From Candidatus Geocrenenecus huangii (lineage in GTDB: Archaea; Thermoproteota; Nitrososphaeria_A; Caldarchaeales; Wolframiiraptoraceae): 64,000 nucleotides of DNA. The notes beneath the pieces are model-generated. The model was not told where the DNA came from, searched no databases, and saw nothing but the letters and a program-made list of their open reading frames with translations. Positions 7,074-62,062 of this stretch are shown here, one piece after another. Position 1 is the first letter of the stretch; each line of letters starts with the position of its first letter. Location: contig JALNLM010000004.1 in NCBI GenBank assembly GCA_023254095.1, positions 41,359 to 105,358 on the forward strand. The letters run 5' to 3'. The translations under genes and the position numbers were made by a program.

Positions 7074-7292
7074 TAATCTTCACCGACCTCATACCATATA
7101 GATGAGCCATCATTTAGATTTTTCTTATGGAACGATCATCCAACTCGAGATACAGGTTTTAGGCTATCAAGTTAAAGGTCGGCTCATTCATGAATGATGA
7201 GACAGTATCCTCCTATCAATTAATAACCTAATCAAATAAGCCAGACAGACTCTTATCCAAACTCATAGATGAAATAGGAGATATACCTTAAC

Positions 7293-20143: not shown

Positions 20144-20409
20144 CTCGGGTTTTCAGCCCCCAGCTCATCTAGTATCTTCTTGAACTTTGCAGGCTCAGCT
20201 ATTGACACAGCATATACGAGTTCTCCTATGAGCTCATCTCTGCTAAATCCTCCCTCCCTATAAGCTTTATTTATCTTCCATCCAACATCATCTGGAACCA
20301 TCTCCAAATTAACAGAGGACAACAGTATGTCAAGTAATTCTTCCACTAGAGATCCTCTATCCTCGATTGATAGTTTCCTGATAATTTCTAGGAATCTATC
20401 TATGCTCAT
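20140..20409 (-). CDS. Hypothetical protein
   Basis: 89-aa ORF whose stop overlaps the LLM start (ATGA), suggesting translational coupling. Confidence 0.7.
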   Translation of the reverse strand: MSIDRFLEIIRKLSIEDRGSLVEELLDILLSSVNLEMVPDDVGWKINKAYREGGFSRDELIGELVYAVSIAEPAKFKKILDELGAENPR

Positions 20410-20584
20410 GTATCCTCGTATAGCTTAAGAAAATGTAGGGATTTAAAAATACTAGTATATAAAAAGCAGGGTTTAGAGACCTATCTGAAGGGTGTTTGGC
20501 AACCCAGTTAGCATCAAATCCTACAAACCTCGTTGTAGGCCTTTAGGGGCCTATTCTCTGAGAGTCTACATATGCGTGGAGACG

Positions 20585-21051
20585 ATGAGTGAGACCTAAT
20601 AGCTTTAGTTATCCGATGTACTGCATCTCATAGAGTTTGTGGACAGGCTAAAAGTCTTCTATATCATCTTGACTGATAACGTAGTGATGGTTTCAGAGCT
20701 GAGGAACCAGGTGAGTTTGGAGATTCCGTATTTTATAGGTGTCCTGAATGCGGTGCTGAGTTCTCTCTCAAAGACTTTAAGAAAGATCGTAGATAGATTA
20801 GTCGAAGGAGGGAAATCCATTAAGACGTATCTGTAGGAGATGTAAGAGAGATAGATTATATCATCGGTTATGATATAATGATGATAGGATACTGCATTAC
20901 AATCTACGATGGCAAACCACGATATTATAGAGATGAAATATGCGATCGAATCTTTGAAGAGAGAAAGAAGTTCATATGTCCGAGATGCTACTTCACGTCA
21001 TCCAATCTAGAAGATATAGTAGAAGTAAGGAATGATACACGAGTGAAGTAG
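20585..21051 (+). pseudogene. Two tandem decayed small Zn-ribbon genes
   Basis: Frameshifted segments ...IEFVDRLKVFYIILTDN / DGFRAEEPGEFGDSVFYRCPECGAEF* and RICRRCK / EIDYIIGYD...KKFICPRCYF...*. Confidence 0.5.
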
Positions 21052-21137
21052 CGATAAAGATTAGTAAGTAAGATGTATTGTATGTGTTGCTAAGCTCTTA
21101 AATTTAAAGCTTAGACATTATTACATTTGAATGGAGA

Positions 21138-22214
21138 TTGGGAGAATATTGGTTTAAGTATGGGGTTACAGAAGTTTTCGCAGATATAAGTGACGAAGTT
21201 AGAGTTGATAAGATATCTACATCATACTCTAGTTTGAAATATGACTATTCCGTAATCTCGAAGATAGCTAACGAAATCGCCGAAGGTGAGAATATAGCCT
21301 TAATCTTTGATTATTCGTCTTCCAGAGATCTCGATCTGCTGAAGTCCCTAATCGCAGAGCTTGAGGCTAAAGGGGTTGAAAAGAACAAGTTCAGGATCTT
21401 GGCTTCTTCATGGAGGATTAATCGGAAAATCTTAGAGAAAGAAATAGAGGAGATCTTGAAACCATATAGAGGCAACATAATCTACCCATGGAGCGAGAGC
21501 AAAGTAGAGTATAAAGGGTTCATGATCTCGAGAAGTATTATTGACTCACAAGTTAAAATCTACATATCTACGATTCTCCCACACGGTATACTGGGATTTC
21601 CATCTATAAGCAACTCACTTAAACTTTCAGGGTGGATTAATGGAGATATAATGGATGATAGTAGTTACTGGTTTAAGTTAAGAGATGAATTAGATTTTAT
21701 GGGGGTCTGCATCGCAGGCGATAATGTTTATTCTGGATATCTGTATGAGATTGAGAATGAATGCCTTAAGAACACCGTGGATAAGTATACCGTGAAGGTC
21801 GATTATGAGGCAGACATACTGCTCGTAGATGGATTAGGATGGCCGTGGGACTCGACGCTTGAGGACAGCTTACATATAGTAAACCTGGTATGCGAGGGGG
21901 TTCGAGAAGGAGGGTTGATCGGTTTAATATCTGAGTGTAGAGAGGGGCTTGGAAGCAGCGTTTTCATAAAAGCATTGCTCTCCAAGACCTTCGAGGAAGA
22001 TACTTTAGGTGTGAAAACACTCAAAAAGACCATGGAGTTGTTAGAGAAGAAGAAGCTTGCTTTTGTAACGACAATCCCTAGAAGCATCCTCGAGAAAACA
22101 CTTAATTCAAGAGGTTTCGACACCGTTCAAGACCTGTTAACGTATGCTTTTAGGATTTACAGTAAACAAGCTGTAGTTAGAATAGTTGATGGAAGTATTC
22201 GTCTTATCAAATAG
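21138..22214 (+). CDS. Divergent LarA (lactate racemase)-like domain protein
   Basis: N-terminal W.KYG; PH..LGF; ADILLV...GWPWD; V.EGG.I.LISECREGLG. Confidence 0.7.
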   Translation: MGEYWFKYGVTEVFADISDEVRVDKISTSYSSLKYDYSVISKIANEIAEGENIALIFDYSSSRDLDLLKSLIAELEAKGVEKNKFRILASSWRINRKILEKEIEEILKPYRGNIIYPWSESKVEYKGFMISRSIIDSQVKIYISTILPHGILGFPSISNSLKLSGWINGDIMDDSSYWFKLRDELDFMGVCIAGDNVYSGYLYEIENECLKNTVDKYTVKVDYEADILLVDGLGWPWDSTLEDSLHIVNLVCEGVREGGLIGLISECREGLGSSVFIKALLSKTFEEDTLGVKTLKKTMELLEKKKLAFVTTIPRSILEKTLNSRGFDTVQDLLTYAFRIYSKQAVVRIVDGSIRLIK

Positions 22215-31946: not shown

Positions 31947-33521
31947 TTATTCTTGTTCTGTCGTTTCTAGTATTCTTCTATAGTATTGTCTTACCGATTT
32001 ACCTTCTCTACGTTCCCACTCTTCTATGGGGGTCCCGTAGAATCTTTGAATTCTATCCCTGTACCAATGGGATAGTACGTTGAATGCGCAGAAGGGAATA
32101 GCACGGTTATCTGGTGTTAGATAGTGGATCCCACATCTCATTACTCTTTCTACATCGTAGTTATAGAGATCCATGAAATGCATCATTCCCAAGAACAAGC
32201 TTCTCCTATGCCAGTCTCCTACACTCTTATAGTCATGCTTAACTATCATTTCGTAGATCATCCTTTTAACATTTATTCCCTCAGGTTGCTTGTCTTCATG
32301 AATGTATTTTCCGAAATCCCAAAGTATTTTCGCCGCGGTTATGAACCTACTCTTCCCAGATTGTAATTCTTCTGCTCTATCTTGAAGATATTTTATCAAT
32401 CCATCAATATCTATGAATTGTGTTATCGGGACTAGTCTATCGCCATCTTTAAATACATATGTTCCTGCACCGCATACGAAATGCGTTGAAAGCTCGTATT
32501 TCGGAGACTTTACAAGCGCCTCAATCATGTGGGTTAGAGGAGTGCATGCTGGAACTGGGAACCAGGCTTCTCTCGGTATCTCACCATTTGTCTGCTCCTC
32601 TATCTTGATTATACAGTCGGGTATAGTTATCCTATATTTTTCTCTTTCTTTGTAGGTTAATCTACCTGTTAAGGATACGGGTTGGAAGTTAACAGACCTT
32701 ATGATATCTATATTCTTGAAACCGAATCTTATTATATCTCCAAGCTCATGGTCGTTGACCCCGCGAATTATTGTAGGTACAAGCACTATGCCTACATTCA
32801 GCTTCCTAGCATTCTCGATAACTTTAGGTACTTCCCAATGATTTTTCGGGTTAGTCCTAGGTGTAACACCGTCGAAGCTTAGGTAGAGATTGCTTACACC
32901 CGCTTCCTTTACTTTCTTAAAGAACTCGAAATCATATGAAAGCCTGATACCATTAGTGTTAAGTTGAATGTGGTCGACACCTTCTTCTTTTATTACTTTA
33001 ATGATCTCGGGTAGGTCATCTCTTAGAGCAGGCTCCCCACCGGTGATCTGAACAGAATTCCCTGGAACAGGATATTCCCTCCTAAGGATTCTAACCATTT
33101 CTCTAATCTGGTCGATCGAGGGCTCATACACATACCCAGCGCGCTCAGCAAAGAAGAAACAGTACCAACAATAGAGATCGCATCTATTCGTTACTACTAT
33201 GTTAGCTAAGGCTGTGTGGCTCAGATGACCTGGACAGAGTCCGCAGTTAGCTGGGCAGGCATATCCCAAGATATTTATGTTCGGGTTACCTGTACCCTTA
33301 CCATCATGTGCGTACTTATTGAATCTCTTATACATTTCAGCATCGCCATAGTAAAGTTCGACGATCTTGCCGTGGGTAGGACATTCTTTCTCCAAGAAGA
33401 TCTTGTTGTCTCTCTCAACTACCTCGGCTGGAATAACTAGGCTACATTCTGGACAGACGCTAAGAGTAGTTTTCAAGACTTGTTTAACCTCGCTTACCTC
33501 GTTAATACTCTGCCTCAACAT
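31947..33521 (-). CDS. tes: Radical SAM tetraether lipid synthase (Tes/GDGT-MAS)-like
   Basis: N-terminal CPEC...CPTHG, CP.NCGLC..H, CDLYCWYC radical SAM motif, NFQPVS, C-terminal HFMD.YN.D.ERV.RC.IHY...IPFC. Confidence 0.85.
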   Translation of the reverse strand: MLRQSINEVSEVKQVLKTTLSVCPECSLVIPAEVVERDNKIFLEKECPTHGKIVELYYGDAEMYKRFNKYAHDGKGTGNPNINILGYACPANCGLCPGHLSHTALANIVVTNRCDLYCWYCFFFAERAGYVYEPSIDQIREMVRILRREYPVPGNSVQITGGEPALRDDLPEIIKVIKEEGVDHIQLNTNGIRLSYDFEFFKKVKEAGVSNLYLSFDGVTPRTNPKNHWEVPKVIENARKLNVGIVLVPTIIRGVNDHELGDIIRFGFKNIDIIRSVNFQPVSLTGRLTYKEREKYRITIPDCIIKIEEQTNGEIPREAWFPVPACTPLTHMIEALVKSPKYELSTHFVCGAGTYVFKDGDRLVPITQFIDIDGLIKYLQDRAEELQSGKSRFITAAKILWDFGKYIHEDKQPEGINVKRMIYEMIVKHDYKSVGDWHRRSLFLGMMHFMDLYNYDVERVMRCGIHYLTPDNRAIPFCAFNVLSHWYRDRIQRFYGTPIEEWERREGKSVRQYYRRILETTEQE

Positions 33522-34055
33522 AATCTATCCTAAGATTGCTGAACATCTAATTAAAGTATTTCCAAACTAACCCTAATAAGAAAGTTAAGAATGTCTGACT
33601 CATAAAGATGATGGTCAACTACGAAATGCTAGGATAGAAATAGTAGAAGATCGATATCTTTCTCCACTACCCTCTTACAAGCATCAATCCTCGGTAATCA
33701 AAGATAAACAAATGTGGTATTCTTGGACCCCATAATTTTATTCTTCTTAGATCTTGAAGCTTCTATAATACTCCATCTGAAAGAGATGACGCAACAAATA
33801 AAAAGACTTGTAATTACTCTAAATAATTCACACTTAAAGCTTCTCTCATAATCTATTCAATAAAATACTCTAAAGAACACTTTCAAACTAGTTGATAATG
33901 GTTGTCTAGAAACTGGGGAAAACTGAAACATAAGAATCATATAGCCAATTTCATAAACACACTATCTAGTTCTCAAAAGATAAATTGAAAAACTAAAAAT
34001 TCAAGATCAAAATCTAAATATAACCATAACGTAAAAATTAATGGAGACAGCGTAG

Positions 34056-34172
34056 CCCGCGGTAGCTCAGCCTGGTAGAGCGTCCGGCTGTAGCCATACC
34101 TGCGCAGGTATGGTCACAACTACCAGGCTGACAGAAACCGGATGGTCGCAGGTTCAAATCCTGCCCGCGGGA
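34056..34172 (+). tRNA. tRNA-Tyr(GUA) with 43-nt intron at position 37/38 (34094-34136); CCA not encoded
   Basis: Acceptor stem CCCGCGG/CCGCGGG, D-stem GCTC/GAGC, anticodon stem TCCGG/CCGGA with GTA at 34090-92, T-arm GCAGG-TTCAAAT-CCTGC; BHB-type CTGT/ACAG helix with 3-nt bulges. Confidence 0.95.
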
Positions 34173-34359
34173 TATTCTATATACTATCCCATCTTTTGAC
34201 GATGCTCTTAATCTTCTGGCTGCTTCAACATGCGCTCTGAAATATCAAGTATTAATCCTTACAACATATTCTTGTTACATTTCCTAGAGTGATTAACATT
34301 TCTTTTTATCTAAAGGGATGCTACAAAGAGAATTGAAGTCACGGAATTCGTTATCTTAG

Positions 34360-34700
34360 TTATTTAAGCCTCGCTCTAGCAATAGCAGATAAGTAGATCT
34401 TTCTTCCATCTTTCTGGATTATGAGACCTTCAAGAGCAAAATTCTCAGCTACTTTCATTATCAAAATATCTAACCAGAACTTATAATAGATGATTCTATA
34501 CCCAGCGATTAGATCAGAAGTTATCGCCCTCGGTTCTAGGTTCTCTCTAAGAAATCTTTCATCAAGAACTACGACGTCTATAACCTTCCCTGTTACAATT
34601 TTTCAATATTTTAGCAATTTCTATCTCTAGTCAGGTTTTTTCACGTATATCGAAAACTTTATCTATAACTATTATACATCCAGAACTCTGGCTTTCATCG
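34360..34700 (-). pseudogene. Decayed minimal nucleotidyltransferase (MNT-like) gene
   Basis: Pieced across frameshifts and a stop: DV / IVIDKVFDIREKT*LEIEIAKIL / VTGKVIDVVVLDERFLRENLEP...DLIAGYRIIY...ARLK*. Confidence 0.5.
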
Positions 34701-35059
34701 AGTTATAGATGCCGCTATAATTTTTTATATTTCTAGATCCTGAAATGTCTAGAAATATAATAAAATAATTCCGGAGTTAAGTTTGATTAATGCTTTGGTA
34801 TAATTTTCTCATCTATAGTCTAGGTAGCATTATTATTTCTCTAAATCATGGTTCTAGAATAGGAATCTGCTTGAAGAATACATGCTATAGAGATCTTAGA
34901 TTGATCTCATGAATATTTTATTGTGGTTAAGTAGCTATGAGGAGAATGCGTATGTGTAAATGGTTCAGGTACATTATGAATGTATGCATGGGCGTATAAC
35001 TTGACAGTATATATGTAGGCATTTACATATTCTTTACTAGCTAACTAAGGTGTGAGACC

Positions 35060-36349
35060 TTGACTGGATTAATTGATAAAAGTTTTGACGTAGCAATCAT
35101 AGGTGCTGGGCCCGCGGGTTTGTCAGCTGCATATACTCTTGCGAAGAACGGGTTGAAAGTAGTTGTTCTCGAAAGAGGGCGGACGCCTGGTTCAAAGAAC
35201 CTTTATGGTGGAAGAATTTACGTTAAACCTCTTGAAGAAATTTTTGAAAATTTTAGACAAGAAGCACCTATCGAGAGATGGGTTAAGAGAGAACGCTTCA
35301 GCATAATGTCTAGAGGAGAGTTATTTACCCTAGAGTATAGTTCTCAAGATACCACAAGCTTCGTAGCTTATCTATCCAAGCTTACAGGCTGGATGGCCAA
35401 GAAAGCTGAGGATGCTGGAGCAGTGATAGTTACAGATGTACGTGTAGACAGCATTCATCTAGAAGATGGCGTAGTAAGAGGAGTGATATCCGGCGAGGAT
35501 ATACTACGAGCCGACGTAGTAGTAGATGCAGAGGGAGTAAATAGGCTAGTTCTTGAAAGACTGGGATTAGTGAATAAGCTAAGTACAACCCAGGTTGCTC
35601 TAGGCTTGAAGCAGGTTATACGACTAGACGCTGATAAGATTGAGGCTAGGCTTGGTCTTTCTCCTGGAGAAGGCCTAGCATGGCTCATAATAGGGGAAGC
35701 AACAGGATATCTCCCCGGAGGAGCATTCATCTACACTAATTCTTCTACTATCAGCATCGGATTCGTGGTATTCCTAGATGAAGCATGTAAAAGAGTCCAC
35801 AAACATGTATTCGATGCTCTTGAAGAATTTAAGCAGACCCCAGCGATCAAGAATATCATAAGTGATGGTGCACTGATCGAGTATGGCTCTCACCTAACAC
35901 CTGAAGCAGGGTTGAAGATGGGACCCACAAAATTATATGGTAATGGTTTACTGATAGTTGGTGATGCGGCTGGACTCCTCTTAAATCTTGGATACACTAT
36001 TAGAGGGGTAGACTTTGCAGCTTATAGCGGATATCTAGCGGCGAAGACTATCCTGAAAGCTCATAGTGAAGGAGGCTACAGAGAAGAGAACCTCTCAATG
36101 TATCAGAAACTTCTCGAAGAAAGTTTTATCATAAAAGAACTTAGGAGGCACAGAAATACCTCTAAGATTCTGAAATCAAGTGAAATGTTTACAATGTATC
36201 CCGTAATGATGTTAGATGTAGCTGGAAGGCTTTTCCAAATACAGGATTCCTCTCCAACGCTAATGCAAGCATTGAAAGAATCTATAAAAGGTAGGGCGTC
36301 CCTAGCGAAAATTATCTGGGATACGTTCAAGTTGGTGAGAGCACTATGA
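35060..36349 (+). CDS. fixC: FixC-like FAD-dependent ETF:quinone oxidoreductase
   Basis: GAGPAG, ERG..PGSKN.YGG, EYGSHL.PE.G, GDAAG..LN.G.TIRG.D. Confidence 0.88.
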   Translation: MTGLIDKSFDVAIIGAGPAGLSAAYTLAKNGLKVVVLERGRTPGSKNLYGGRIYVKPLEEIFENFRQEAPIERWVKRERFSIMSRGELFTLEYSSQDTTSFVAYLSKLTGWMAKKAEDAGAVIVTDVRVDSIHLEDGVVRGVISGEDILRADVVVDAEGVNRLVLERLGLVNKLSTTQVALGLKQVIRLDADKIEARLGLSPGEGLAWLIIGEATGYLPGGAFIYTNSSTISIGFVVFLDEACKRVHKHVFDALEEFKQTPAIKNIISDGALIEYGSHLTPEAGLKMGPTKLYGNGLLIVGDAAGLLLNLGYTIRGVDFAAYSGYLAAKTILKAHSEGGYREENLSMYQKLLEESFIIKELRRHRNTSKILKSSEMFTMYPVMMLDVAGRLFQIQDSSPTLMQALKESIKGRASLAKIIWDTFKLVRAL

Positions 36350-38360: not shown

Positions 38361-39011
38361 TTGAATGAGAATTTGAGAAAGCTTTTTATCGCTACTCTAG
38401 GCTTTGACGAAAAGTTTATCATCAGATCGTTAATAAGAAATGGATTATCTAATGGCGACTCAATTCTAATTTTCGCTCCCAAAGGATACCTGCAAGATGA
38501 TAAATCTAGTAAAGCAGCTGAAGCCATAAAAGAGATAGTTACGAAGATCCTTCCAAACGTTGAATTGAGAATTGAGGAATATGATCTTCGAGAAGACTTT
38601 GCCAGAGAGATCCATAGGGCTAGAAGCTTAATCCAGAATTATGAATCCAATGAAGTAATCGCATGTCTATCAGGTGGGATGAGAGCATTAATACTTGGAG
38701 TAATCTCAGCTCTCATGACGCTTGATGGTTACAGGATAGTTATCGAAATAGAATTTGAGAATCTGGAAAACTATGTAAGGATACCTCTGCATACATTAAA
38801 GATACCATACAACAACAGATGGCTAACCATATTAGAACATCTAGAGTCTGGAAAGTCTATTAGGGCAATATCTAAAGACGTGGGATTGTCTGCCGCAACG
38901 ATCAGCCGGATAGTAAACGAAATGAAAAGCTATAAGCTAGTTGACGAAGAAAATCAGGTTACAGAAGACGGGTTCTTCTATATGAAAATCTATAAAAAGC
39001 TGTTTCGATGA
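38361..39011 (+). CDS. csa3: CRISPR-associated CARF-HTH regulator Csa3
   Basis: IATLGFDEKFIIR, LSGGMRAL, EIEFE, C-terminal winged HTH (SIRAISKDVGLSAATISR). Confidence 0.92.
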   Translation: MNENLRKLFIATLGFDEKFIIRSLIRNGLSNGDSILIFAPKGYLQDDKSSKAAEAIKEIVTKILPNVELRIEEYDLREDFAREIHRARSLIQNYESNEVIACLSGGMRALILGVISALMTLDGYRIVIEIEFENLENYVRIPLHTLKIPYNNRWLTILEHLESGKSIRAISKDVGLSAATISRIVNEMKSYKLVDEENQVTEDGFFYMKIYKKLFR

Positions 39012-39020
39012 TGTGAAACA
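39001..39020. promoter_or_regulatory. TGTTTC-N8-GAAACA palindrome, candidate Csa3 operator
   Basis: Perfect 6-bp inverted repeat about 40 bp upstream of a BRE/TATA-like GAAAGATTTATA that precedes the csa5 ATG at 39090. Confidence 0.5.
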
Positions 39021-39089
39021 AAATGTTCTTTCTTATGAAATATTAATACAGACGAAAGATTTATACCTTTGTTCGATGAATATGATTGT

Positions 39090-39467
39090 ATGAACCCTGA
39101 GGCAGAGGAAAGTGTGGAGGAAAAGTTTAGTGAGATAGTTAACATGCTGAGATTCTTCTCGAAGATAAGAAGATACAGTTTTCTCGATAGAATAGGAAAT
39201 GCATTAAACTATGAAACTATCGAGTTTGCTTTATGGGAAGCGATCAGAACCTTCAGGTCAATATATGATTCAGCAAAGATAGAGAAGATAGATAATAAAG
39301 AACGTAGATACTATGAAGAAGATGGAAAAACATACATCTTGCCTAAGATCCCTGAAGAGTCTCAGATTATTGAATTTTTAAGACTTGCCAGAGAAGAAAT
39401 AGGTGTGGCTAGAAGATTAGCGATCAGAGCTTTGAGTTTTCCATATATTGTTAAAGAAGAAGAGTGA
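39090..39467 (+). CDS. csa5: Type I-A small subunit Csa5 (Cas11)
   Basis: YSFLDRIGNALN.ETI.FAL.EAIR; position before cas7; TTG at 39069 is an alternative start. Confidence 0.85.
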   Translation: MNPEAEESVEEKFSEIVNMLRFFSKIRRYSFLDRIGNALNYETIEFALWEAIRTFRSIYDSAKIEKIDNKERRYYEEDGKTYILPKIPEESQIIEFLRLAREEIGVARRLAIRALSFPYIVKEEE

Positions 39468-39478
39468 GGTGAAGGTAC

Positions 39479-40453
39479 ATGTTTGTGAGCGTAGGGGCTA
39501 GATTTGAGGCAAATGTTGAAGCATTAAATATGGTTGAAACTGCTGGAAACTACTCGAAGCATAGGAGGGTGCCATACATAGTCGAAGACAAGGGAGCGAT
39601 AAAGATAATCTACGTTCCCGCTGTAAGTGGAGAAAGCATTGCTCATGCATTCCAAGAACTATTAGCTGAGGAAGCAGCAGCTGAAAATCAAAAAGTATGT
39701 AGAAAATGTGCTAGAGGAGAGTTCTTGAAGTCAATGGATGAGGAGAATGCTGCTGAAAAGTTTGAAGATAAGAAAACACCTTCCGTAGCAGAAGAGATAG
39801 AGAAAGGAATTGTAAAGAATTGCACGGTAGAAGATGTTGGTGGGTTCCTATACGCAGGTAAACCGCCTGTCAAAAGAACATCTTCTTTCCAGGTTAGTTA
39901 CGCACTACCGATAAAGAAGATGGCTGTATACTCTACTGTTGAACCTCAACTACATGCTAGACATGCAATAATCGCTAAAGTTGAGGAGAAGAAAAGAGAG
40001 GTGGGAACTGCTGCTGAGCAGATGCTATACTATGTAGAGACCGGTACCGCTATCTATGCTTTTACACTCAACATAGACCTAAAAGCCATAGGTATAAGCG
40101 CAATAACAGGCAATCTCTTAATATCTGAAGATGAGGTAAAAGCTAGAAGAAGATCAACTATACGTTCTCTGGCAAGAATGCTTTCATCTGGTCAGTTTGG
40201 TGCGAAGCTTTCAAGATTCCTGCCTTTAGGAGGCATAATATCGCTTGTGGCCTCAGTAACCGAGAAACCCTTTACAATAACATCTCCAATATACGATGGG
40301 TTTGAAGACAATACTATGAAGAGACTTGAAAAAATAGCGAGAGAATTTAATGAAGAGTATAGATACTTCGTAATGGGGAGAGAGGGGCTCGATACGCCAG
40401 AGCATGTCATGACACAGCTACTACAATACTTGAAGAGCAGAGACATAGTATAG
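39479..40453 (+). CDS. cas7: Type I-A Cas7 (Csa2)
   Basis: NVEALNMVE..GNYSKHRR, VPAVSGES.AH, EDVGGFL, KRTS, QLHARH, FGAKLSRF.P. Confidence 0.95.
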   Translation: MFVSVGARFEANVEALNMVETAGNYSKHRRVPYIVEDKGAIKIIYVPAVSGESIAHAFQELLAEEAAAENQKVCRKCARGEFLKSMDEENAAEKFEDKKTPSVAEEIEKGIVKNCTVEDVGGFLYAGKPPVKRTSSFQVSYALPIKKMAVYSTVEPQLHARHAIIAKVEEKKREVGTAAEQMLYYVETGTAIYAFTLNIDLKAIGISAITGNLLISEDEVKARRRSTIRSLARMLSSGQFGAKLSRFLPLGGIISLVASVTEKPFTITSPIYDGFEDNTMKRLEKIAREFNEEYRYFVMGREGLDTPEHVMTQLLQYLKSRDIV

Positions 40454-40459
40454 ACCTCG

Positions 40460-41194
40460 GTGCCGAAGAAGATGCCTCTGTCTTTGATGGCTACGTTGAG
40501 AAGCCACGGAGTCATCGCGCTCCGAGTTTCCCCTCAGAGTAAGATGAGGATCTCTTTCAAACATCCTCCCCCTACATCTATTATCGGTGCTTTAGCGTAT
40601 CCCCTCTTCAGAGATAGTAGGATAGAAATAGTAGCTAGCGGAGATGATGGAGTAAAGTCGACGGCCGATGAGCTTAGGAGAATGCTGATATCTGTAGCGG
40701 TGAGCAGTAGGGGTGGGTTAATGTATGGGCCTTTATTCAAGATAAACAGACTCTATCATGGTGTTGCTGAATCGGCGGTAACATCTCTCCCGATAACCGT
40801 TACTTACTCAGAATATGATTCTCCGATAAAGGTGGTATATGTCTTCGATGACGAAAAGCTGACGAATTATACAGTGGCTGAGCTTGAAAGAGCAGCCTGG
40901 GGTATAACAAGGCTAGGATCTAGAGAAAGTATCGTGAACGTTGAAGATGTAAAAACATCTAGAGTAGAGATATCGGAGATGGAGACCGTGAAAACCTCCT
41001 TCAGCTACTCTTTAGAGAGAGTAGAAAATGTTAAAGGCAGACATGACGTAGAGATGGTTGTTGATTGGAGAATCAGCGAGATAGGAGATTACTCTAGAGT
41101 TGGCAGAATCAGAGTAGCATATCCTCTCGAAGATAACATTGTTGAGGGGAAATTAAAGGTAGCTTTTGTTGATGGTGAAGCGGTGATAATATGA
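40460..41194 (+). CDS. cas5: Type I-A Cas5
   Basis: SK.R.S...PPPTSIIGALAYP; AAWGITRLGSRES. Confidence 0.92.
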   Translation: MPKKMPLSLMATLRSHGVIALRVSPQSKMRISFKHPPPTSIIGALAYPLFRDSRIEIVASGDDGVKSTADELRRMLISVAVSSRGGLMYGPLFKINRLYHGVAESAVTSLPITVTYSEYDSPIKVVYVFDDEKLTNYTVAELERAAWGITRLGSRESIVNVEDVKTSRVEISEMETVKTSFSYSLERVENVKGRHDVEMVVDWRISEIGDYSRVGRIRVAYPLEDNIVEGKLKVAFVDGEAVII

Positions 41195-42450
41195 ATCCTG
41201 CCGAGATAGTTGGCAGAATACCATTTACAGGCCTATTAAGAGAATTAATCACGATAGGCTTACTTGAATTGGTGAGGGCGCGCATCTTTACATCGAAAGA
41301 GTCAGAAATCCAGGAAAGAATAACAGAGTATATGGAGAAGCTATCAGATAAGTTTAAATCAGATTTCTCAGGCATGTCCTCCAGTAAGATCGTACTTAAT
41401 GATAGAAGTGCATACTTCATAAAAAGTAAGAGGCTTACGAAATGGTATGGGGAAAGTGGGGTACCGCAGGATTACATAGGTTTAATGATATATGTGCTAG
41501 AAAACACCTCGAAGCTCCTCAAGAAAAAGAAGATAGATTTCATAGAGAGCTTAAATAACATTAGCATAGGTAGAGAAGTAGTTTTGGGGAGAAAGTATCA
41601 TGACTCATTAGCGATCGTTCCGGCAGTAATTAAACAAGCAGAATTCTATGAATTCCAACATGAGTTTTTAAAGCCGACTGCTGGAGAGAAACCTGAGATA
41701 CTCTTAGACCCGATATGGTTTGCTGTGCTGGCCATAGGCTTCTTAATATGCTTTGCAGGATACTATGGAGGAGGATATTACTTTATCACAAGAGAAGGGG
41801 TAGAGGCGATCTTCGGCGATGCCGAGAAAACACAACAGGTATACAATGCAGTTACAAATTTGACAGCTACACATGTAAAGATAAAACCTCTACCATATAG
41901 TGAAGAACTATATGAATTAAGGTTAAGTTATGGATTGGCTTATTCGAAAATTGTTATTGATCGAGAAGCCTTTCCTCTAAAGGTCTACGAGATATCGCTA
42001 GTTGGAAATGCATATACATGTACTAGGGTGATTCTGATAGATTTGACAAAGACCATTGAGTATCTGCAGGCTTACATCGACAATCTCCACACCCCGAACC
42101 AGGCTTTCTTCCAAGTGAAATTAAAAAACAATCAATATGATAATCCAATACATGCTCTGTTAGAGCTAGCTGAGAGAGAGATTCAGAAACCAGTCAAAGG
42201 AGATAGTAGCATGTTGCTCTTGACATTTGTAAAAGATCTCTATAGAGCAATACATGTTGGAAGTCCAAGCTTGATGGAAGAAACTTTATTGAGGATGTTG
42301 AGAATCTCCCATTCTATCTTGACCACTAAGGAGAAGGTAGATCCCTTGTTGAGGGAAACATTCAAGAAATTCATGTACGAACCACATGTCTCAGCAGTTA
42401 TTAATGCATGTAAAGGTAGAATATATGATAGATCTGATCTCAATATATGA
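41191..42450 (+). CDS. cas8a: Type I-A large subunit Cas8a-like
   Basis: Sits between cas5 and cas3' with overlapping stop/start; P.VIKQ.EFYE and DPIW..LAIGF...AGY segments; assigned largely by synteny. Confidence 0.7.
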   Translation: MNPAEIVGRIPFTGLLRELITIGLLELVRARIFTSKESEIQERITEYMEKLSDKFKSDFSGMSSSKIVLNDRSAYFIKSKRLTKWYGESGVPQDYIGLMIYVLENTSKLLKKKKIDFIESLNNISIGREVVLGRKYHDSLAIVPAVIKQAEFYEFQHEFLKPTAGEKPEILLDPIWFAVLAIGFLICFAGYYGGGYYFITREGVEAIFGDAEKTQQVYNAVTNLTATHVKIKPLPYSEELYELRLSYGLAYSKIVIDREAFPLKVYEISLVGNAYTCTRVILIDLTKTIEYLQAYIDNLHTPNQAFFQVKLKNNQYDNPIHALLELAEREIQKPVKGDSSMLLLTFVKDLYRAIHVGSPSLMEETLLRMLRISHSILTTKEKVDPLLRETFKKFMYEPHVSAVINACKGRIYDRSDLNI

Positions 42451-44026
42451 TGAAGTAAAGCAGAGATTAAATGGTGAAGAACGTCCACTAATTAGAGATG
42501 TATTGAAGAGTATCGAGCAAGTTGATAAACCATTCCTCTACATAGTGAAAGCACCCACCGGATACGGAAAGACAGCGATAAGCATTTCATGCGCAGTATA
42601 CTCTATCTTTAATTCTTCTTTATTCACTAAAGTCGTACACATACTTCCAATGAGGTCGATAGTTGAAGACGTATATTTCAGAGCTTCAAGGATAATGGGG
42701 AAGGAAGCTGTAAAAGAAAAAATGATGGATGTAGAAGAAGAGAAGCTAGAAGTATTCCACTTGTTCCCGTTGAATGTTACTACCGTTGATACTTTTACGT
42801 GGGACGTAATGAAGCTTAACACAAAGAAGATCGGGTTGATCAGGGAGGAAAAAGCATTCGGCTACGATTATCTTACTCAAGGATCATTAATGGATTCTCT
42901 ACTATTCTTCGATGAAGCACACTACATTCTAGAAGATGAGCATATGAAGATCGTATTCGCAGTGATATTAGAACTACTACTAAGATATAAAACCTCCTTA
43001 ATAATCTCGACAGCTACATTATCGAAGGGATATGAAGAGTACTTCTTAAGCTTAGCAGAGGGATACGGATACGATTTTAAGATTTTTGCACCTGAGGACT
43101 CGGATCCGTTCATAAAAAGAGAAGAGGAGAAAGATTTCAATATACACCTTGTTGATAATGATGTGGAACTAGTTGATAACATTGCTAGGTTGATAGACTT
43201 AGATAAAGTAAATTTGGTAGTAGTTAACTCGCCATACACCGCTGTCAGCGTATATGATAGACTGAGTTCTTCCTATGAAGTAGACCTATTCTTACTTCAC
43301 GGTAATATGAAGAAGAAACATAGAGAGAATGTTCTTGAAAAGATTAGGATGTATTCTCGAGCTAAAACTCCAAGCATTATTATAACAACTCAAGTTATAG
43401 AGGCTGGAGTCGATATTTCTTCGGACGTATTAATCACTGAGTTATCTGTAGCGCAATCTCTTATACAGAGGATGGGGAGGGTAGCTAGATACAATGAAAA
43501 ATTTGCAGACATCTATATCCTGAAAAGCCCGGGAGAACCTTATCCAGCTGATAAGATCGAGAAGACATGGAGGCAGCTCAAAGAAGATGCTAAGCTAATC
43601 CATCCGAGAATCCCTTCTACATACTATAACTTGCTGAATCAGATTCACGGAAGAATCCAGCAAGAAGTTGACATAAGGCTATCTCCTAATTACACCAAGG
43701 CTATGAAACAATTATTGATAAAACTACTTGATATACGTGTGAGAGCGCCAGAGATACTTGGTCAGGTCGAGAGTATTATTAGACAGCAAGCTTTTCTAAG
43801 AGAGTTCACTATACCTGTAAAAGTTGAAGATGAGTATATTCTCTTCTCGCCTAGAGAGGTAGAAAAGATGTTCCGAAAGAATCTGATCGAAGTTAGAGCA
43901 GGTCATGGACCCGTAGACCCGTCTCGAGACTTTTACAAGTTAGCTGAAGAGTTTGCTTTAGGTAAGAAATCAGCTGAAGTGGTCTATATAGGAGAATATG
44001 ATTGGGTTAGAGGTATACTTCCATGA
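42425..44026 (+). CDS. cas3: Cas3' helicase
   Basis: APTGYGKT, DEAH, STAT, TQVIEAGVDIS, QRMGRVAR; ATG at 42425 preferred over 42386. Confidence 0.95.
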   Translation: MIDLISIYDEVKQRLNGEERPLIRDVLKSIEQVDKPFLYIVKAPTGYGKTAISISCAVYSIFNSSLFTKVVHILPMRSIVEDVYFRASRIMGKEAVKEKMMDVEEEKLEVFHLFPLNVTTVDTFTWDVMKLNTKKIGLIREEKAFGYDYLTQGSLMDSLLFFDEAHYILEDEHMKIVFAVILELLLRYKTSLIISTATLSKGYEEYFLSLAEGYGYDFKIFAPEDSDPFIKREEEKDFNIHLVDNDVELVDNIARLIDLDKVNLVVVNSPYTAVSVYDRLSSSYEVDLFLLHGNMKKKHRENVLEKIRMYSRAKTPSIIITTQVIEAGVDISSDVLITELSVAQSLIQRMGRVARYNEKFADIYILKSPGEPYPADKIEKTWRQLKEDAKLIHPRIPSTYYNLLNQIHGRIQQEVDIRLSPNYTKAMKQLLIKLLDIRVRAPEILGQVESIIRQQAFLREFTIPVKVEDEYILFSPREVEKMFRKNLIEVRAGHGPVDPSRDFYKLAEEFALGKKSAEVVYIGEYDWVRGILP

Positions 44027-44730
44027 ATCATGTCTGCTTAGCATACTTCCCTAGATCTCCTGATGAACGCGGCCAAACAATAGAGGAACACATCATTAGA
44101 GGGCTCGAATTCTTGGAAGAGATGTATCTGGAAAGAGGATTCGCTGAGTATCTTGTTAGATTGGCCAAGTATTTTAAGGTTGAATTATCTCTTACAGAAA
44201 GTCGAAACGCCATTTATGCTTCATACATATTCCATGACCTGGGAAAGATATCTAAAGAATATCAAGAGAAGAAATCAGGCTTCAGCGGCCATGAGATCAT
44301 TTCAGCTTATTGGGTAATGGAGCACGGCAGCCAGTTAGCTCTCGGAAAGATGCTCTACCACGTTGCGTTAGCAATATACTTACATCATCATGACATGAGG
44401 AGGGGAACTAAAACACTACAAAAGGTTAATTTATGCAGCGAATGTCTTAGAAAAATCCTAGATATATACGAGGGAAAGACATCTATCAATTTAGCAAGTT
44501 ATAAAACGAGATTCAGAGGAGAGCTCTCTTCTGGATTAACTAGGTATCTTAATAGGATCGAAAAAGAGGATGTCAGGTTATCGTATCCTTTACTACAGGT
44601 AGTCCATGGAGTGGATAACTATTCAGCACTCGAACGAGAGGGAAAACCATCGGTTCTATCGACCGAGGTCAGAAAAGTCGTCGACGCCGTCCGATTATTA
44701 AGAGAAGATTTTGGAAGAGTATTTAGATAG
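44023..44730 (+). CDS. cas3'': Cas3'' HD nuclease
   Basis: EEH, FHDLGK, GHEIIS, LHHH, VDNYSA all intact. Confidence 0.93.
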   Translation: MNHVCLAYFPRSPDERGQTIEEHIIRGLEFLEEMYLERGFAEYLVRLAKYFKVELSLTESRNAIYASYIFHDLGKISKEYQEKKSGFSGHEIISAYWVMEHGSQLALGKMLYHVALAIYLHHHDMRRGTKTLQKVNLCSECLRKILDIYEGKTSINLASYKTRFRGELSSGLTRYLNRIEKEDVRLSYPLLQVVHGVDNYSALEREGKPSVLSTEVRKVVDAVRLLREDFGRVFR

Positions 44731-60141: not shown

Positions 60142-60948
60142 ATGTTCGAAGATGTATTGTTAAGTTTTCTATCAGGAGTTATTCAAGGGGTTACTGAATG
60201 GCTTCCGATAAGCAGTAAGACTATGTTGTTCTTCTTATTCCATCTATGGGGGATATCTACACAGGATTCATACATGCTTAGCTTGATGCTTAACGGGTCC
60301 ACGATAGCGGCGGCCTCCATTTACTTTAGAAAAGAATTAGTAAGATTACTGGGTTTATCAAGAAAAGCCGACTCGAATCTCAGCCTACTCATGTTTTTGG
60401 TAGTCTCAACGTTTGTTACTGGAGTATTAGGAGTGATCCTTCATAGATTCTCACTCAGCTTTATAACGGAGTTAAGTTCAAGCGGTCTACTCATTTTCAT
60501 AGGATGTATGCTGTTCGTATCTGCCTTGGTAAATTGGTTGAGGATGAAAATGAATCCCATCGAGAAGACTATGAATGATGTAAACTTAAGGGATGCATTT
60601 ATTACAGGGGTAGCGCAATCCTTCTCCGTCCTACCCGGTATCAGTAGAAGTGGCGTAACAATACTAGTTCTCGTTATTAGGAGATACAATGTTAAAGATT
60701 CCTTAACGATCTCATACTTAATGAGTATACCTGTAACACTGGGTGGAAGCATTTATGCTTACATAACTTACCCAAAAGTCTTCCAGATGCTGGATGTTTA
60801 TGAAGCCTTATTCTCGGTGATTGTAGCGACAATAGTCTCGTTAGCTATGATATCCATATTGCTTAGATTATCTCAAAAACTTAAACCACACCTATTCTTA
60901 TCAACGTTATCCATCATAACTATTCTCTCAGGACTCCTCTTCCGCTAA
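60142..60948 (+). CDS. uppP: Undecaprenyl-diphosphate phosphatase (UppP/BacA) family
   Basis: QGVTEWLPISS, G.AQ...LPGISRSG.T. Confidence 0.9.
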   Translation: MFEDVLLSFLSGVIQGVTEWLPISSKTMLFFLFHLWGISTQDSYMLSLMLNGSTIAAASIYFRKELVRLLGLSRKADSNLSLLMFLVVSTFVTGVLGVILHRFSLSFITELSSSGLLIFIGCMLFVSALVNWLRMKMNPIEKTMNDVNLRDAFITGVAQSFSVLPGISRSGVTILVLVIRRYNVKDSLTISYLMSIPVTLGGSIYAYITYPKVFQMLDVYEALFSVIVATIVSLAMISILLRLSQKLKPHLFLSTLSIITILSGLLFR

Positions 60949-61680
60949 CTCTATCAAGCTTCCAAGTATTCTTGCATGTTTTCTCTCATCTGCCTCCACG
61001 GACTCAATCAAGACTTTTAAGAGTTTATGTGGAAGATACGATTTTACTTCATCCAGGCTATGGACGTGAGCGATCTCTTCTTTATCCAGCAATGATTGAA
61101 GAATGTTCTTCTCCGGCACTTCTATCTTTACATCTTCACCCCTCTCGAGTATCGAGATCGTGGACATTAGAATGTCAGCATGCTTAATACTATCGCTTGC
61201 TATCTGTCTAAAGATCATTCTAGTAATCTCGTTATCTATCTTGGAAGCCGTCTCCATGAATTTCTCAGCTGCTTCATGCTCTGCCTGAGCTCTCTCACGG
61301 AGTGTTCGGATAAGCTTGGTCTTAGCTTGCTCCAAACCATACTTTATTCTTCCCTTCTTATCTTCTTCAAGTATTGATGAGATGGTCAATGCAAGCTCAT
61401 ATAGTTCCGCTTCAGAGATTTTCCCACCTTTGGAGATAATGTTCTCGACCGATTCACTGATAAGCTTACTAGCTCTTGGGTCTTCTAGAAGCTTAAGCAG
61501 TCTCCCCCTTCTACCGCTCATGTAATGTGTTACAGCTGCTGGGCTCACTCTAAGTATTTGAGAAGCTTTCCTCTTACTATAACTGTATTTCTCTACAAGT
61601 ATCTTTATCATCTTGGCCCTAATTGCAGGGACCAACTGCTCAGACCGGATAGACATCACTCGAGTATAGTTATCTTCCAA
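60928..61680 (-). CDS. HTH-ferritin/rubrerythrin-like fusion, putative iron-responsive regulator
   Basis: N-terminal HTH (VPAIR...YSKRKASQILRVSPAAVTHYMSGRRG); C-terminal helical bundle with E...DSIKH and E...DERKH; ATG at 61656 is a possible start. Confidence 0.75.
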   Translation of the reverse strand: MEDNYTRVMSIRSEQLVPAIRAKMIKILVEKYSYSKRKASQILRVSPAAVTHYMSGRRGRLLKLLEDPRASKLISESVENIISKGGKISEAELYELALTISSILEEDKKGRIKYGLEQAKTKLIRTLRERAQAEHEAAEKFMETASKIDNEITRMIFRQIASDSIKHADILMSTISILERGEDVKIEVPEKNILQSLLDKEEIAHVHSLDEVKSYLPHKLLKVLIESVEADERKHARILGSLIELAEEES

Positions 61681-61709
61681 AGTTAAAAACTTGTGTTTTA
61701 TATTCTTTG

Positions 61710-61744
61710 TTTACACTGTAAATTCAGTATTTTTACGGTGAAAA
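61710..61744. promoter_or_regulatory. Tandem palindromic operator candidates TTTACACTGTAAA and TTTACGGTGAAAA
   Basis: First site is a perfect 6-1-6 palindrome, second matches 10/13; starts 22 bp apart; between divergent TATA-like boxes. Confidence 0.6.
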
Positions 61745-61807
61745 ACTCTTAAATACGGATTTTCCCTCCTAACAGCTAGAAAGAATAGATGAGGTTAATG
61801 AAGTAAT

Positions 61808-62062
61808 ATGAGAGGAGATAAGCTAGACAACGTCCTCCCATTATCGGTTGTCAAAGAGGGGAAGACCGTTAGAATAGTTAAGATCATTGGTGGAGGAGGA
61901 TTGGTTAGAAGATTATATGAAATAGGTCTCCTACCTGGAGTAGAAGTAATGATTGTAAGAAATAGTGGGTTTGGGCCGGTCATAATCAGAAATAATGTTA
62001 GTGGGACTTTCTGCCTAGGTTTCGGGGTAGCAAAGAAAATCATTGTTGAGGTGGTGTCATGA
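61808..62062 (+). CDS. feoA: Ferrous iron transport protein A
   Basis: RRLYEIGLLPG.EV...GPVII...LG.G.A.KI.V. Confidence 0.92.
   Translation: MRGDKLDNVLPLSVVKEGKTVRIVKIIGGGGLVRRLYEIGLLPGVEVMIVRNSGFGPVIIRNNVSGTFCLGFGVAKKIIVEVVS

Follow-up and report, generated by a model that had tools for sequence, protein, structure and literature searches.

A candidate archaeal metalloregulator family that joins a helix-turn-helix to a rubrerythrin-like domain, with conserved putative palindromic operators and metal importer neighbors

The 64,000-nucleotide (nt) stretch analyzed here, hereafter the window (Candidatus Geocrenenecus huangii, contig JALNLM010000004.1, positions 41,359 to 105,358), contains a gene for a candidate metal-responsive regulator, with an N-terminal helix-turn-helix (HTH) domain and a C-terminal rubrerythrin/ferritin-like domain, which is transcribed divergently from the iron importer genes feoA and feoB. 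The window is a stretch of archaeal chromosome with a G+C content of 40.6%, which includes a type I-A cas cluster, succinate dehydrogenase, and genes for ribosomal proteins. The genus Geocrenenecus belongs to the Wolframiiraptoraceae within the Caldarchaeales (PMC9246946, available in part), and neither "feo" nor "ferrous" occurs in the available part of that paper. Bioinformatic analysis of the importer genes confirmed the divergent arrangement proposed in an earlier note on this DNA, both by open reading frame (ORF) positions and by domain matches. FeoB scores 599.9 bits with TIGR00437 (cutoff 315.65) and displays Pfam FeoB_N (E 2.6e-60), Gate, FeoB_Cyto, and FeoB_C motifs, so that a protein with a FeoA domain is followed by a FeoB with G-domain, Gate, and FeoB_C, the extreme C terminus of which lies beyond the window. 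The closest public locus is that of a Candidatus Geocrenenecus metagenome-assembled genome (MAG), whose regulator and FeoB are 86 and 70% identical to those of the window, respectively. A scan for sigma-70 promoters and intrinsic terminators is uninformative for an archaeon.

The regulator gene was originally read as an ORF of 250 amino acids (aa) (60928..61680, minus strand), counted from a TTG codon at 61680. The ORF itself is real, but we placed its start at the ATG at 61656, because the gene-called closest relatives are 238-243 aa long and align from the methionine of a MSIRSEQ sequence, and this ATG is conserved. The coding sequence (CDS) is most likely 60928..61656 and encodes 242 aa, the TTG-started form being unlikely. 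Residues are numbered hereafter according to the 242-aa form.

The N-terminal domain resembles a Cro/C1-type HTH, which would be expected to bind DNA. In an AlphaFold2 (AF2) model, the HTH helices correspond to residues 28-35 and 39-47 (61516-61575) and include a conserved SPAAVTxY recognition-helix motif. Within an alignment of 30 sequences (A1), Ala41, Tyr45, and Arg50 are invariant and Val42 is at least 90% conserved. The window protein scores below threshold with HTH_31 (PF13560 type; 16.8 bits, cutoff 27), the relative P0060 passes the HTH_3 (PF01381) cutoff (25.7 for a cutoff of 23), and the relative P0025 has precomputed PF01381 and PF13560 assignments. The family profile matches a lambda-repressor-like chain (E 0.0017), and its N-terminal part also picks up many stand-alone HTH_3 proteins of ~100-135 aa.

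The C-terminal domain is ferritin/rubrerythrin-like by sequence profile, as had been anticipated, and its candidate metal ligands are invariant. It matches Pfam Rubrerythrin (PF02915) over residues 132-239 of the 250-aa form. The cutoff of this model is passed by relatives P0060 (25.6), P0080 (27.0), and P0140 (29.7), with other relatives falling below, and the NCBIfam model for the EncB encapsulin ferritin-like cargo also hits the domain (E 1.6e-5), below its own cutoff. When a profile built from A1 was used, positions 117-242 matched the 139-aa mini-bacterioferritin 9qq4 (E 0.0012), with Glu126, Ser156/His159, Glu193, and Glu224/His227 falling in the canonical E, ExxH, E, and ExxH columns. 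The two E...D(S/E)xxH motifs noticed originally are indeed present, as E126...D155-S-I-K-H159 and E193...D223-E-R-K-H227. In A1, Glu126, Asp155, His159, and Glu193 are invariant, and Asp223, Glu224, and His227 nearly so. In a second alignment, of the C-terminal domain from 60 sequences sharing 27-89% identity with the window protein, Arg150, Asp155, His159, Glu193, Asp223, Glu224, Lys226, and His227 are each found in 60/60 sequences, Glu126 in all 57 non-gap rows, and position 156 is Ser in 53 sequences and Cys in the remaining seven. The di-iron site expected from an ExxH pair is thus kept in five of its six canonical ligands (Glu126, His159, Glu193, Glu224, and His227), but the first ExxH has Ser or Cys instead of Glu. 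The candidate ligands are carboxylates and histidines, with no conserved Cys cluster among them. No rubredoxin-type Fe(Cys)4 domain was found in the protein, which ends 15 residues past His227 without Cys motifs. This pattern of conservation suggests a carboxylate/histidine dimetal-type site composed of Glu126, Asp155, His159, Glu193, Asp223/Glu224, and His227, which would bind metal.

The intergenic region contains two predicted 13-bp operator sites (Table 1), whose positions and center-to-center spacing of 22 bp were verified in the window sequence. Site 1 is conserved in an alignment of the four closest loci. Its counterparts score 10.7-15.4 in L002, L007, L008, L013, and L024, and 7.0 in L001, with a position weight matrix (PWM) built from 64 upstream sites. 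Two TATA boxes had also been proposed. The one preceding feoA is conserved in the four loci and appears as TATTTAAG/TATTTAAA in relatives, but the one assigned to the regulator (61697-61704) is not conserved, and a box at 61682-61689, within the invariant block TTTTTAACTT of the four-locus alignment, is likelier. The position of this box implies that the regulator mRNA would be leaderless or nearly so. The end of site 2 is 4 nt upstream of the feoA TATA-like box, where the B recognition element (BRE) is expected, and site 1 is 20 nt from the regulator box. The latter is overlapped by a possible third site, degenerate in the window, which is a full match in L001 (PWM 13.7, at -33) and L002 (14.1, at -30 from the regulator start). 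This geometry would allow repression by BRE occlusion, perhaps with participation of the degenerate third site, and activation would also be compatible with the layout.

Within the whole window, TTTACNNNGTAAA with at most one mismatch has three matches, for 2.34 expected (42/100 shuffled sequences reach three), and WTHACNNNGTDAW has five, for 2.64 expected (9/100 shuffles reach five). What is unusual is that two of the three TTTACNNNGTAAA matches lie within 35 bp in one intergenic region, and that these sites are also conserved in relatives. The other four WTHACNNNGTDAW matches (20676, 43433, 44802, and 60463) were rejected as chance occurrences, in coding DNA or with no metal-related neighbor, and an inverted repeat (61720-61732/61751-61763, 85% complementary) was set aside, being not conserved.

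Table 1. Features of the regulator-feoAB region (window positions; operator and promoter assignments are predictions)
Feature	Position	Strand	Remarks
Regulator CDS	60928..61656	-	242 aa + stop; ATG conserved in the four closest loci
N-terminal DNA-binding domain (putative)	61363..61656	-	residues 1-98
Rubrerythrin/ferritin-like helical domain	60934..61344	-	residues 105-241
Candidate ligand codons	E126 61279-61281; D155 61192-61194; H159 61180-61182; E193 61078-61080	-	
Candidate ligand codons, continued	D223 60988-60990; E224 60985-60987; H227 60976-60978	-	
Likely regulator TATA box TTTTTAAC	61682..61689	-	26 nt from ATG; promoter role suggested by position
Possible degenerate third site	61674..61686	.	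TTAAC-TTT-GGAAG on the minus strand; PWM <6 in the window; a lead only
Operator site 1 TTTACACTGTAAA	61710..61722	.	perfect 5+3+5 palindrome TTTAC-ACT-GTAAA; PWM 15.4; predicted
Operator site 2 TTTACGGTGAAAA	61732..61744	.	imperfect palindrome TTTAC-GGT-GAAAA; PWM 7.0; predicted
Likely feoA TATA box CTTAAATA	61748..61755	+	53 nt before feoA ATG; putative promoter role
feoA	61808..62062	+	84 aa; Pfam FeoA E 5.3e-16
feoB	62059..>63999	+	647 aa visible; 4-nt overlap with feoA stop; truncated by window end
Undecaprenyl-diphosphatase gene (uppP/BacA)	60142..60948		convergent with the regulator

Protein homology searching identified 49 relatives with E ≤0.001 among 2167 candidates, none of which has a functional name, and one source labels a member "predicted transcriptional regulator/rubrerythrin." When the profile was compared with 1.84 billion cluster representatives, 1806 were found at E ≤0.001, of which 168 reached ≤1e-10 and 57 reached ≤1e-30. 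The top of this list consists of full-length two-domain proteins, and the Atlas clusters are labeled "hypothetical protein" or "Transcriptional regulator family protein," with partial Rubrerythrin/HTH_3 labels. The impression that this architecture does not correspond to a characterized family still stands, considering that the relatives lack functional names and that a search of the full-text literature, with subscription papers and supplements outside its scope, returned no description of an HTH-rubrerythrin/ferritin-like regulator or of such an operator.

All counts of neighbors, motifs, and linkage given below refer to the best 80 of 165 relatives' loci (L001-L080), with one genome per species from 185,579 species. 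Genes at these loci were called crudely: the regulator ORF was fixed in place, and around it the longest ORFs that do not overlap were taken, down to a length of 70 aa. The three genes flanking the regulator on either side were clustered and 40 cluster representatives scanned with Pfam; 150 of the 154 immediate neighbors were also scanned, those of L079 and L080 being left out. The 80 loci span the Nitrososphaerota (Wolframiiraptoraceae, Calditenuaceae, Caldarchaeaceae, Conexivisphaerales, Gagatemarchaeaceae, and others) and many Thermoplasmata, together with two loci labeled Micrarchaeota, one labeled Bathyarchaeota, and four from MAGs labeled bacterial. The latter include L026, L029, and L039, which is nearly identical to the Bathyarchaeota-labeled L037.

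The palindrome family is concentrated upstream of the regulator in these relatives, including in loci held out when the motif was defined. The pattern WTHAC-N3-GTDAW was drawn from the upstream regions of 21 close loci within a source set comprising L001-L028, and the 52 loci L029-L080 were not looked at when it was written. Across all 80 loci, the 260 nt preceding the regulator (20,441 nt in total) contain 64 matches, versus 22 in the remaining 795,750 nt, which corresponds to a 113-fold upstream enrichment of WTHAC-N3-GTDAW (WTHACNNNGTDAW). In the source set, an upstream match is found in 22/28 loci, with 5.42 matches per kb versus 0.121 per kb in other non-coding DNA. In the held-out set, it is found in 23/52 loci, with 1.88 per kb versus 0.139 per kb in non-coding and 0.017 per kb in coding DNA. 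In addition, 22 held-out loci have a close same-strand gene before the regulator, and 11 of these carry TTCAC-N3-GTGAW upstream of that gene, which is ZIP-like in all 11. A strict site thus precedes the regulator's transcription unit in 34 of the 52 held-out loci and in 56 of the 80 overall. A motif-free count of perfect 5+3+5 palindromes gave a comparable picture. The top upstream arm was ATAAC in the source set (eight loci, one copy elsewhere) and TTCAC in the held-out set (10 loci, 11 copies elsewhere, most of which are the operon sites upstream of the preceding gene).

The arrangement of the sites is also shared. A weaker TATA-proximal site with a second site 21-22 bp away is found in L001, L002, L007, L008, L013, and L024, and in L009 and L011 two sites abut, with a spacing of 13 bp. 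Loci of the Caldarchaeum and Pelearchaeum types have one site beginning 40-41 nt ahead of the regulator start and a second between the TATA-like box of the divergent gene and its start codon. In the Caldarchaeum-type loci, these positions are those expected of a repressor.

The gene immediately upstream of the regulator (position -1) encodes a metal-cation importer in 45/80 loci from at least three archaeal phyla, a count whose internal control is the occurrence of metal genes specifically at -1, not a genome-wide base rate. For these tallies, one short ORF judged spurious was skipped in L011 and in L013. An adjacent and divergent feoB accounts for nine of these loci, and the other 36 have a distant ZIP (29 loci), FTR1 (five loci; L005, L025, L027, L059, and L072), or Nramp (two loci; L012 and L058) at -1. 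Clustering added a further Nramp in L048. An ABC-3 permease with a ZnuA-type binding protein is found downstream, in convergent orientation, in L015, L016, L018, L019, and L028. A ferritin occurs in L020 and L048, and a NicO protein in L073. When the NicO locus is excluded, 52/80 loci have a metal importer or a ferritin within three genes of the regulator. Neighbors elsewhere are unrelated or unassigned, and include MTHFR, TackOD1, and MobA-like genes. Several -1 neighbors in Thermoplasmata (L030, L066, L071, L073, L078, and others) had no Pfam match at E ≤1e-4, some of which may be false ORFs of the crude calls in G+C-rich DNA.

The ZIP-like permease is a membrane protein of ~260 aa found in 30/80 loci (29 times at -1), divergent from the regulator in 15 and on the same strand in 15. 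Its profile matches the ZIP structures 8j1m (E 1.9e-5) and 5tsa (E 4.7e-4), and the ZupT model matches 14/26 members (best E 1.6e-11), with the best Pfam ZIP score (29.0) below the cutoff of 35.1. It displays QNLTEG/QNVTEG where the matched ZIP structure has the metal-site motifs HNLPEG/QDVPEG. A hidden Markov model of these neighbors, run against the seven genes per locus, returned the same 30 proteins and no further members. In Thermoplasmata, this permease (e.g. L034:5096-5887) accompanies the regulator family more commonly than any other partner.

In a quick maximum-likelihood tree of 81 regulators, the window protein belongs to a clade of 13 rows (Shimodaira-Hasegawa-like approximate likelihood ratio test support of 98), 10 of which are linked to feo, the window included. 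The exceptions are L006, L017, and L010, the last of which has only 494 nt of upstream DNA. The expected linkage of homologs to feo is thus seen in this clade, whereas in the family as a whole feoB is adjacent in only 9/80 loci. Neighbor labels change 26 times on the tree versus a mean of 43.0 for shuffled labels, with none of 200 shuffles as low, which shows clustering by kinship only. In two Candidatus Pelearchaeum MAGs (L004 and L005), the regulators are nearly identical (branch lengths 0 and 0.026) and the upstream regions (L004:5843-6001 and L005:5825-6001) contain near-identical arrays of at least four operator-like sites, yet L004 has a phosphonate-binding-type ABC importer as divergent neighbor and L005 has an FTR1 iron permease. 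The two loci suggest that the regulated transporter was swapped beside a fixed regulator-operator module, the two transporters being interchangeable targets, and they hint that the phosphonate-binding-type importer is metal-related.

Two side observations concern feo-linked relatives. A second conserved element, ATTTTCGCGCAATCGC, directly follows the operator pair and precedes the regulator start in the feo-linked subclade (L007:3030-3112, L008, L013, and L024, and more loosely L009 and L011), and could represent a promoter element or a site bound by another regulator. Downstream of the regulator, L007, L008, L013, and L024 encode a DUF134 HTH protein, followed in L007, L008, and L024 by a NifB/NifX-like (Nitro_FeMo-Co) protein; L007 and L008 also have a NUBPL/ParA-type iron-transfer ATPase.

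Next, we considered structural models of the regulator. The full-length AF2 model, with a predicted local distance difference test (pLDDT) of 86.5 and a predicted template modeling score (pTM) of 0.54, shows the HTH followed by two linker helices and four long helices. The model of the C-terminal domain only (pLDDT 92.8, pTM 0.81) shows four long helices with a 10-residue B-C loop. Foldseek returned ferritin-like proteins as top matches for the full two-domain model (E ≥0.4). For the domain-only model, most of the matches listed in the top 50 are ferritins, bacterioferritins, Dps-like proteins, and rubrerythrins (probability 0.91-0.99), with one de novo helical bundle among them.

A two-copy prediction scored 0.62 as a homodimer, whereas the best of three controls reached 0.02. 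The mark used is reached by 20/30 proteins solved as one-chain pairs and 1/23 solved as single chains, counts that hold only roughly here because the run used our own alignment. Contact agreement between runs is at least 69% and partner pLDDT at least 75. The predicted interface is wholly C-terminal (residues 111-237), and its lowest-error contacts run antiparallel between helix B and helix D of the other chain, residue 155 with 223 and 227, 159 with 220 and 223, and 147-148 with 230-234. The Asp155/His159 motif would thus face Asp223/His227 of the partner, and the metal site may be assembled between chains, a possibility we infer from the dimer contacts taken together with the poor superposition of the monomer model on ferritins described below. 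It should be noted that the margin over controls may reflect likeness to solved ferritin-like dimers.

The earlier proposal of a regulator that would sense Fe(II) or redox state and control both itself and iron uptake is supported by the conserved operators, the importer linkage, and the ferritin/rubrerythrin-like C-terminal domain with its invariant candidate ligands. We consider it highly probable that the protein responds to metal and regulates the adjacent importer, as well as its own gene, through this operator family. With considerably less assurance, we lean on balance toward a complete scheme in which the window protein would be an Fe(II)-loaded dimeric repressor of feoAB and of its own gene, acting at feoA by BRE occlusion. 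The 242-aa protein would be a one-component transcription factor of an uncharacterized archaeal family, dimerizing through its rubrerythrin-like domain. Metal occupancy would fix the two N-terminal HTH domains, and each dimer would bind one 13-bp palindrome, TTnAC-N3-GTnAA. The two sites are two helical turns apart between the divergent core promoters, with site 2 next to the feoA TATA box, at the position expected for contact of TFB with the BRE. Under Fe(II)-replete conditions, the protein in its metal-loaded form would occupy the sites, which would block formation of the pre-initiation complex at feoAB and damp the regulator's own promoter. When iron is scarce, the protein would leave the sites and Feo would be made. 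Fe(II) as the effector of the window orthologue is suggested by its partner genes.

A number of points weigh against this scheme. With respect to the sensor domain, the window protein passes the Pfam Rubrerythrin cutoff only narrowly (23.4 bits for a cutoff of 22.8), a search of the PDB with the single protein sequence gave only insignificant matches (best E 0.13, to BfrB), and one canonical ligand, the Glu of the first ExxH, is replaced by Ser or Cys, with the invariant Asp155 one residue before it. Foldseek matches of the domain-only model to ferritins have E ≥0.037, with a TM score of ~0.4 and a root mean square deviation of ~20 Å. The order of helices matches that of ferritins, yet the monomer model does not superpose as a closed bundle, which would fit either an open, swapped protomer or a model error. 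With respect to the operators, motif counts over the 64-kb window are not above chance, so no wider regulon is visible in it, 24/80 loci have no strict motif, and both strong sites lie upstream of both TATA-like boxes, a geometry also used by archaeal activators. With respect to the neighborhoods, the 80 loci are related genomes rather than independent samples, only nine have feo linkage, 28 have no gene of the counted metal families (one of them with NicO), and six Caldarchaeales loci (L004, L014, L016, L018, L019, and L028) have as divergent neighbor the phosphonate-binding-type ABC importer, which is not known to function in metal handling. In addition to Fe, the ZIP, Nramp, and ABC-3 systems transport Mn or Zn. 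Finally, the family member of L054, which comes after a ZIP-like gene, is directly followed by a DtxR-type gene (6828-7259; Fe_dep_repr_C, E 5.8e-16). Both regulator types thus coexist in at least one Thermoplasmata genome, and the family need be neither the sole metal regulator nor iron-specific.

Among the alternatives, the one that survives best, although we rate it as unlikely, is that the protein is a redox or peroxide sensor, whose di-iron centre would be oxidized by H2O2 or O2 from the diferrous to the diferric state, altering DNA binding so that Fe(II) import is shut off under oxidative stress in a PerR-like manner. The di-iron sites of rubrerythrins and bacterioferritins, the lineage to which the Pfam and 9qq4 profile matches assign the sensor domain, react with peroxide or O2, and the Fe(II) imported by Feo is a Fenton-active species. 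An archaeal PerR that ties redox sensing to metal homeostasis has been published (PMC11724291, available in part). However, the neighbors of the family are importers and storage proteins and not peroxidases, superoxide reductase, or thioredoxin-type genes, and the predicted site lacks one canonical carboxylate. Redox and simple metal sensing can coexist, and the present data do not separate them.

The layout of the intergenic region also bears on the direction of control. An activator, in its apo or holo form, could bind just upstream of the feoA BRE/TATA and recruit TFB/TBP, thereby turning feoAB on, which we find rather unlikely. Known archaeal activators use sites upstream of the BRE/TATA, and the position of both strong sites relative to the two TATA-like boxes is the same in the closest relatives as in the window. 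However, with site 2 at the BRE position, steric exclusion of TFB is at least as likely as its recruitment. Moreover, the sites of Caldarchaeum- and Pelearchaeum-type loci overlap the TATA/start region of the regulator (-41/-40) and fall also between the TATA-like box and start of the neighbor, and in L001 and L002 a full site lies over the regulator's TATA-like box.

The neighborhoods bear on the identity of the metal. The same kind of regulator could use Mn(II) or Zn(II) as effector instead of Fe(II), in the family or even in this orthologue, a reading we regard as quite doubtful. It would account for the ZIP-type permease being the commonest partner, for the presence of Nramp and ABC-3/ZnuA systems, and for the DtxR-type gene that adjoins one member. 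It agrees less well with the ties of the window orthologue and its clade to FeoAB, with the FTR1 and ferritin partners, which point to iron, and with the carboxylate/His ligand set devoid of a conserved Cys cluster. The ZIP-like partner, too, would offer fewer soft ligands, owing to its QNLTEG/QNVTEG motifs. Last, an ordinary XRE-type regulator, whose helical C-terminal domain would only dimerize without sensing metal and whose location next to feoAB would be incidental, would suit the weak Pfam and Foldseek support for a ferritin fold in the single window protein, but is very improbable considering that seven acidic/His residues, which fall in canonical ligand columns, do not vary among 60 sequences with identities as low as 27% and that the gene at -1 so often encodes a metal importer.

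Returning to the metal-responsive repressor that we favor, its relation to known systems can be outlined as follows. As a rule, transcription factors that sense metals are assigned to one of a few families. MntR has a binuclear carboxylate/His Mn site, and the protein described here is predicted to share with DtxR/MntR a one-component design in which an HTH is joined to a metal-binding helical dimerization domain. Metal-dependent repression of Fe/Mn uptake genes, palindromic operators, and autoregulation, all known for DtxR/MntR, are likewise proposed here. It differs from them in its rubrerythrin-like sensor domain, its Cro/C1-type rather than winged-helix HTH, and its operator. Neither the DtxR N-terminal HTH nor Fe_dep_repr_C is among the nine Pfam families listed at E ≤1 for the window protein, and the family profile matches ScaR weakly, at the level of the HTH (E 0.021). 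In bacteria and archaea, DtxR family members act as repressors under the control of Fe(II)/Mn(II), according to the available part of a 2024 metallostasis review (PMC11672702), in which neither "ferritin-like" nor "diiron" occurs. As proposed for this protein, Fur/PerR proteins control feoAB as metal-loaded dimers at tandem palindromic sites, but their fold and ligand chemistry are different, and no Fur family model is among the nine Pfam or four NCBIfam families listed at E ≤1 for the window protein. For PerR, metal-catalyzed redox sensing is coupled to metal homeostasis, also in an archaeon (PMC11724291, same available part).

Likeness to rubrerythrin, sulerythrin, (mini-)bacterioferritin, and encapsulated ferritin is apparent in the Rubrerythrin, EncB, and 9qq4 matches with their aligned ligand columns. 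Rubrerythrin and sulerythrin form domain-swapped dimers and encapsulated ferritins have a metal site at an interface, both of which the predicted between-chain site would resemble. Those proteins, however, are enzymes or iron stores without a DNA-binding domain. Compared with them, the family has an N-terminal HTH and no rubredoxin-type domain, Ser or Cys in place of the first ExxH Glu, and a monomer TM score of only ~0.4. A parallel in concept is the use of a di-iron helical bundle as an iron/oxygen sensor governing iron homeostasis by FBXL5, a eukaryotic hemerythrin-domain iron sensor, and by HRZ/BTS. These have a hemerythrin fold, a ubiquitin-ligation output, and eukaryotic hosts, unlike the proteins described here. 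HRZ and BTS are hemerythrin-domain iron sensors of plants (for HRZ, PMC3905729, available in part).

We view these proteins as a probable new metalloregulator family of one-component design, whose sensor fold, to our knowledge, is not otherwise used in such a role. A ferritin-superfamily sensor joined to an HTH would add to the metalloregulators a family with a different coordination chemistry. More tentatively, in a proposal that we find possible but somewhat short of probable, this would be the first transcription factor family built on a ferritin-superfamily sensor, in which a dimetal site between two (possibly domain-swapped) chains is bridged by Fe(II), which would set the HTH spacing for TTnAC-N3-GTnAA. 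Caldarchaeales, other Nitrososphaerota, and many Thermoplasmata would have in it a main regulator of iron/divalent metals, with Feo, FTR1, Nramp, ZIP-type, and ABC importers under its control. The family would offer a concrete candidate for control of iron uptake in little-studied archaeal lineages, namely Caldarchaeales, non-ammonia-oxidizing Nitrososphaerota, and Thermoplasmata of soil and peat. The operator consensus permits prediction of regulons from genomes alone, and a metal role becomes likely for the divergent ZIP-like permease and the phosphonate-binding-type ABC importer, which share these operators. The predictions lend themselves to direct testing, and the protein is small.

Several other features of the window are worth reporting. 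The regulator and uppP/BacA overlap at their 3' ends by 21 nt (60928-60948), and this adjacency is kept in L001, L002, L003, L006, and L017. A type I-A CRISPR-Cas cluster at 38361-44730 encodes Csa3, Csa5, Csa2/DevR, a 244-aa ORF without assignment, Csx9, a Cas3 helicase, and an HD nuclease; Tandem Repeats Finder detected no repeat array anywhere in the 64-kb window. A 730-nt gap between ORFs (20409-21138) contains, at 20440-20640, a TATA-like stretch and a G+C-richer segment, with no convincing ORF and no Rfam match at gathering thresholds, and could hold a small RNA or a small protein gene. Finally, Rfam identifies a 117-nt tRNA at 34056-34172 (58.8 bits), where ARAGORN reports no tRNA in the window. 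It lies within a 1.5-kb stretch (33521-35060) without an ORF of at least 80 aa, and presumably contains an intron, given its length.

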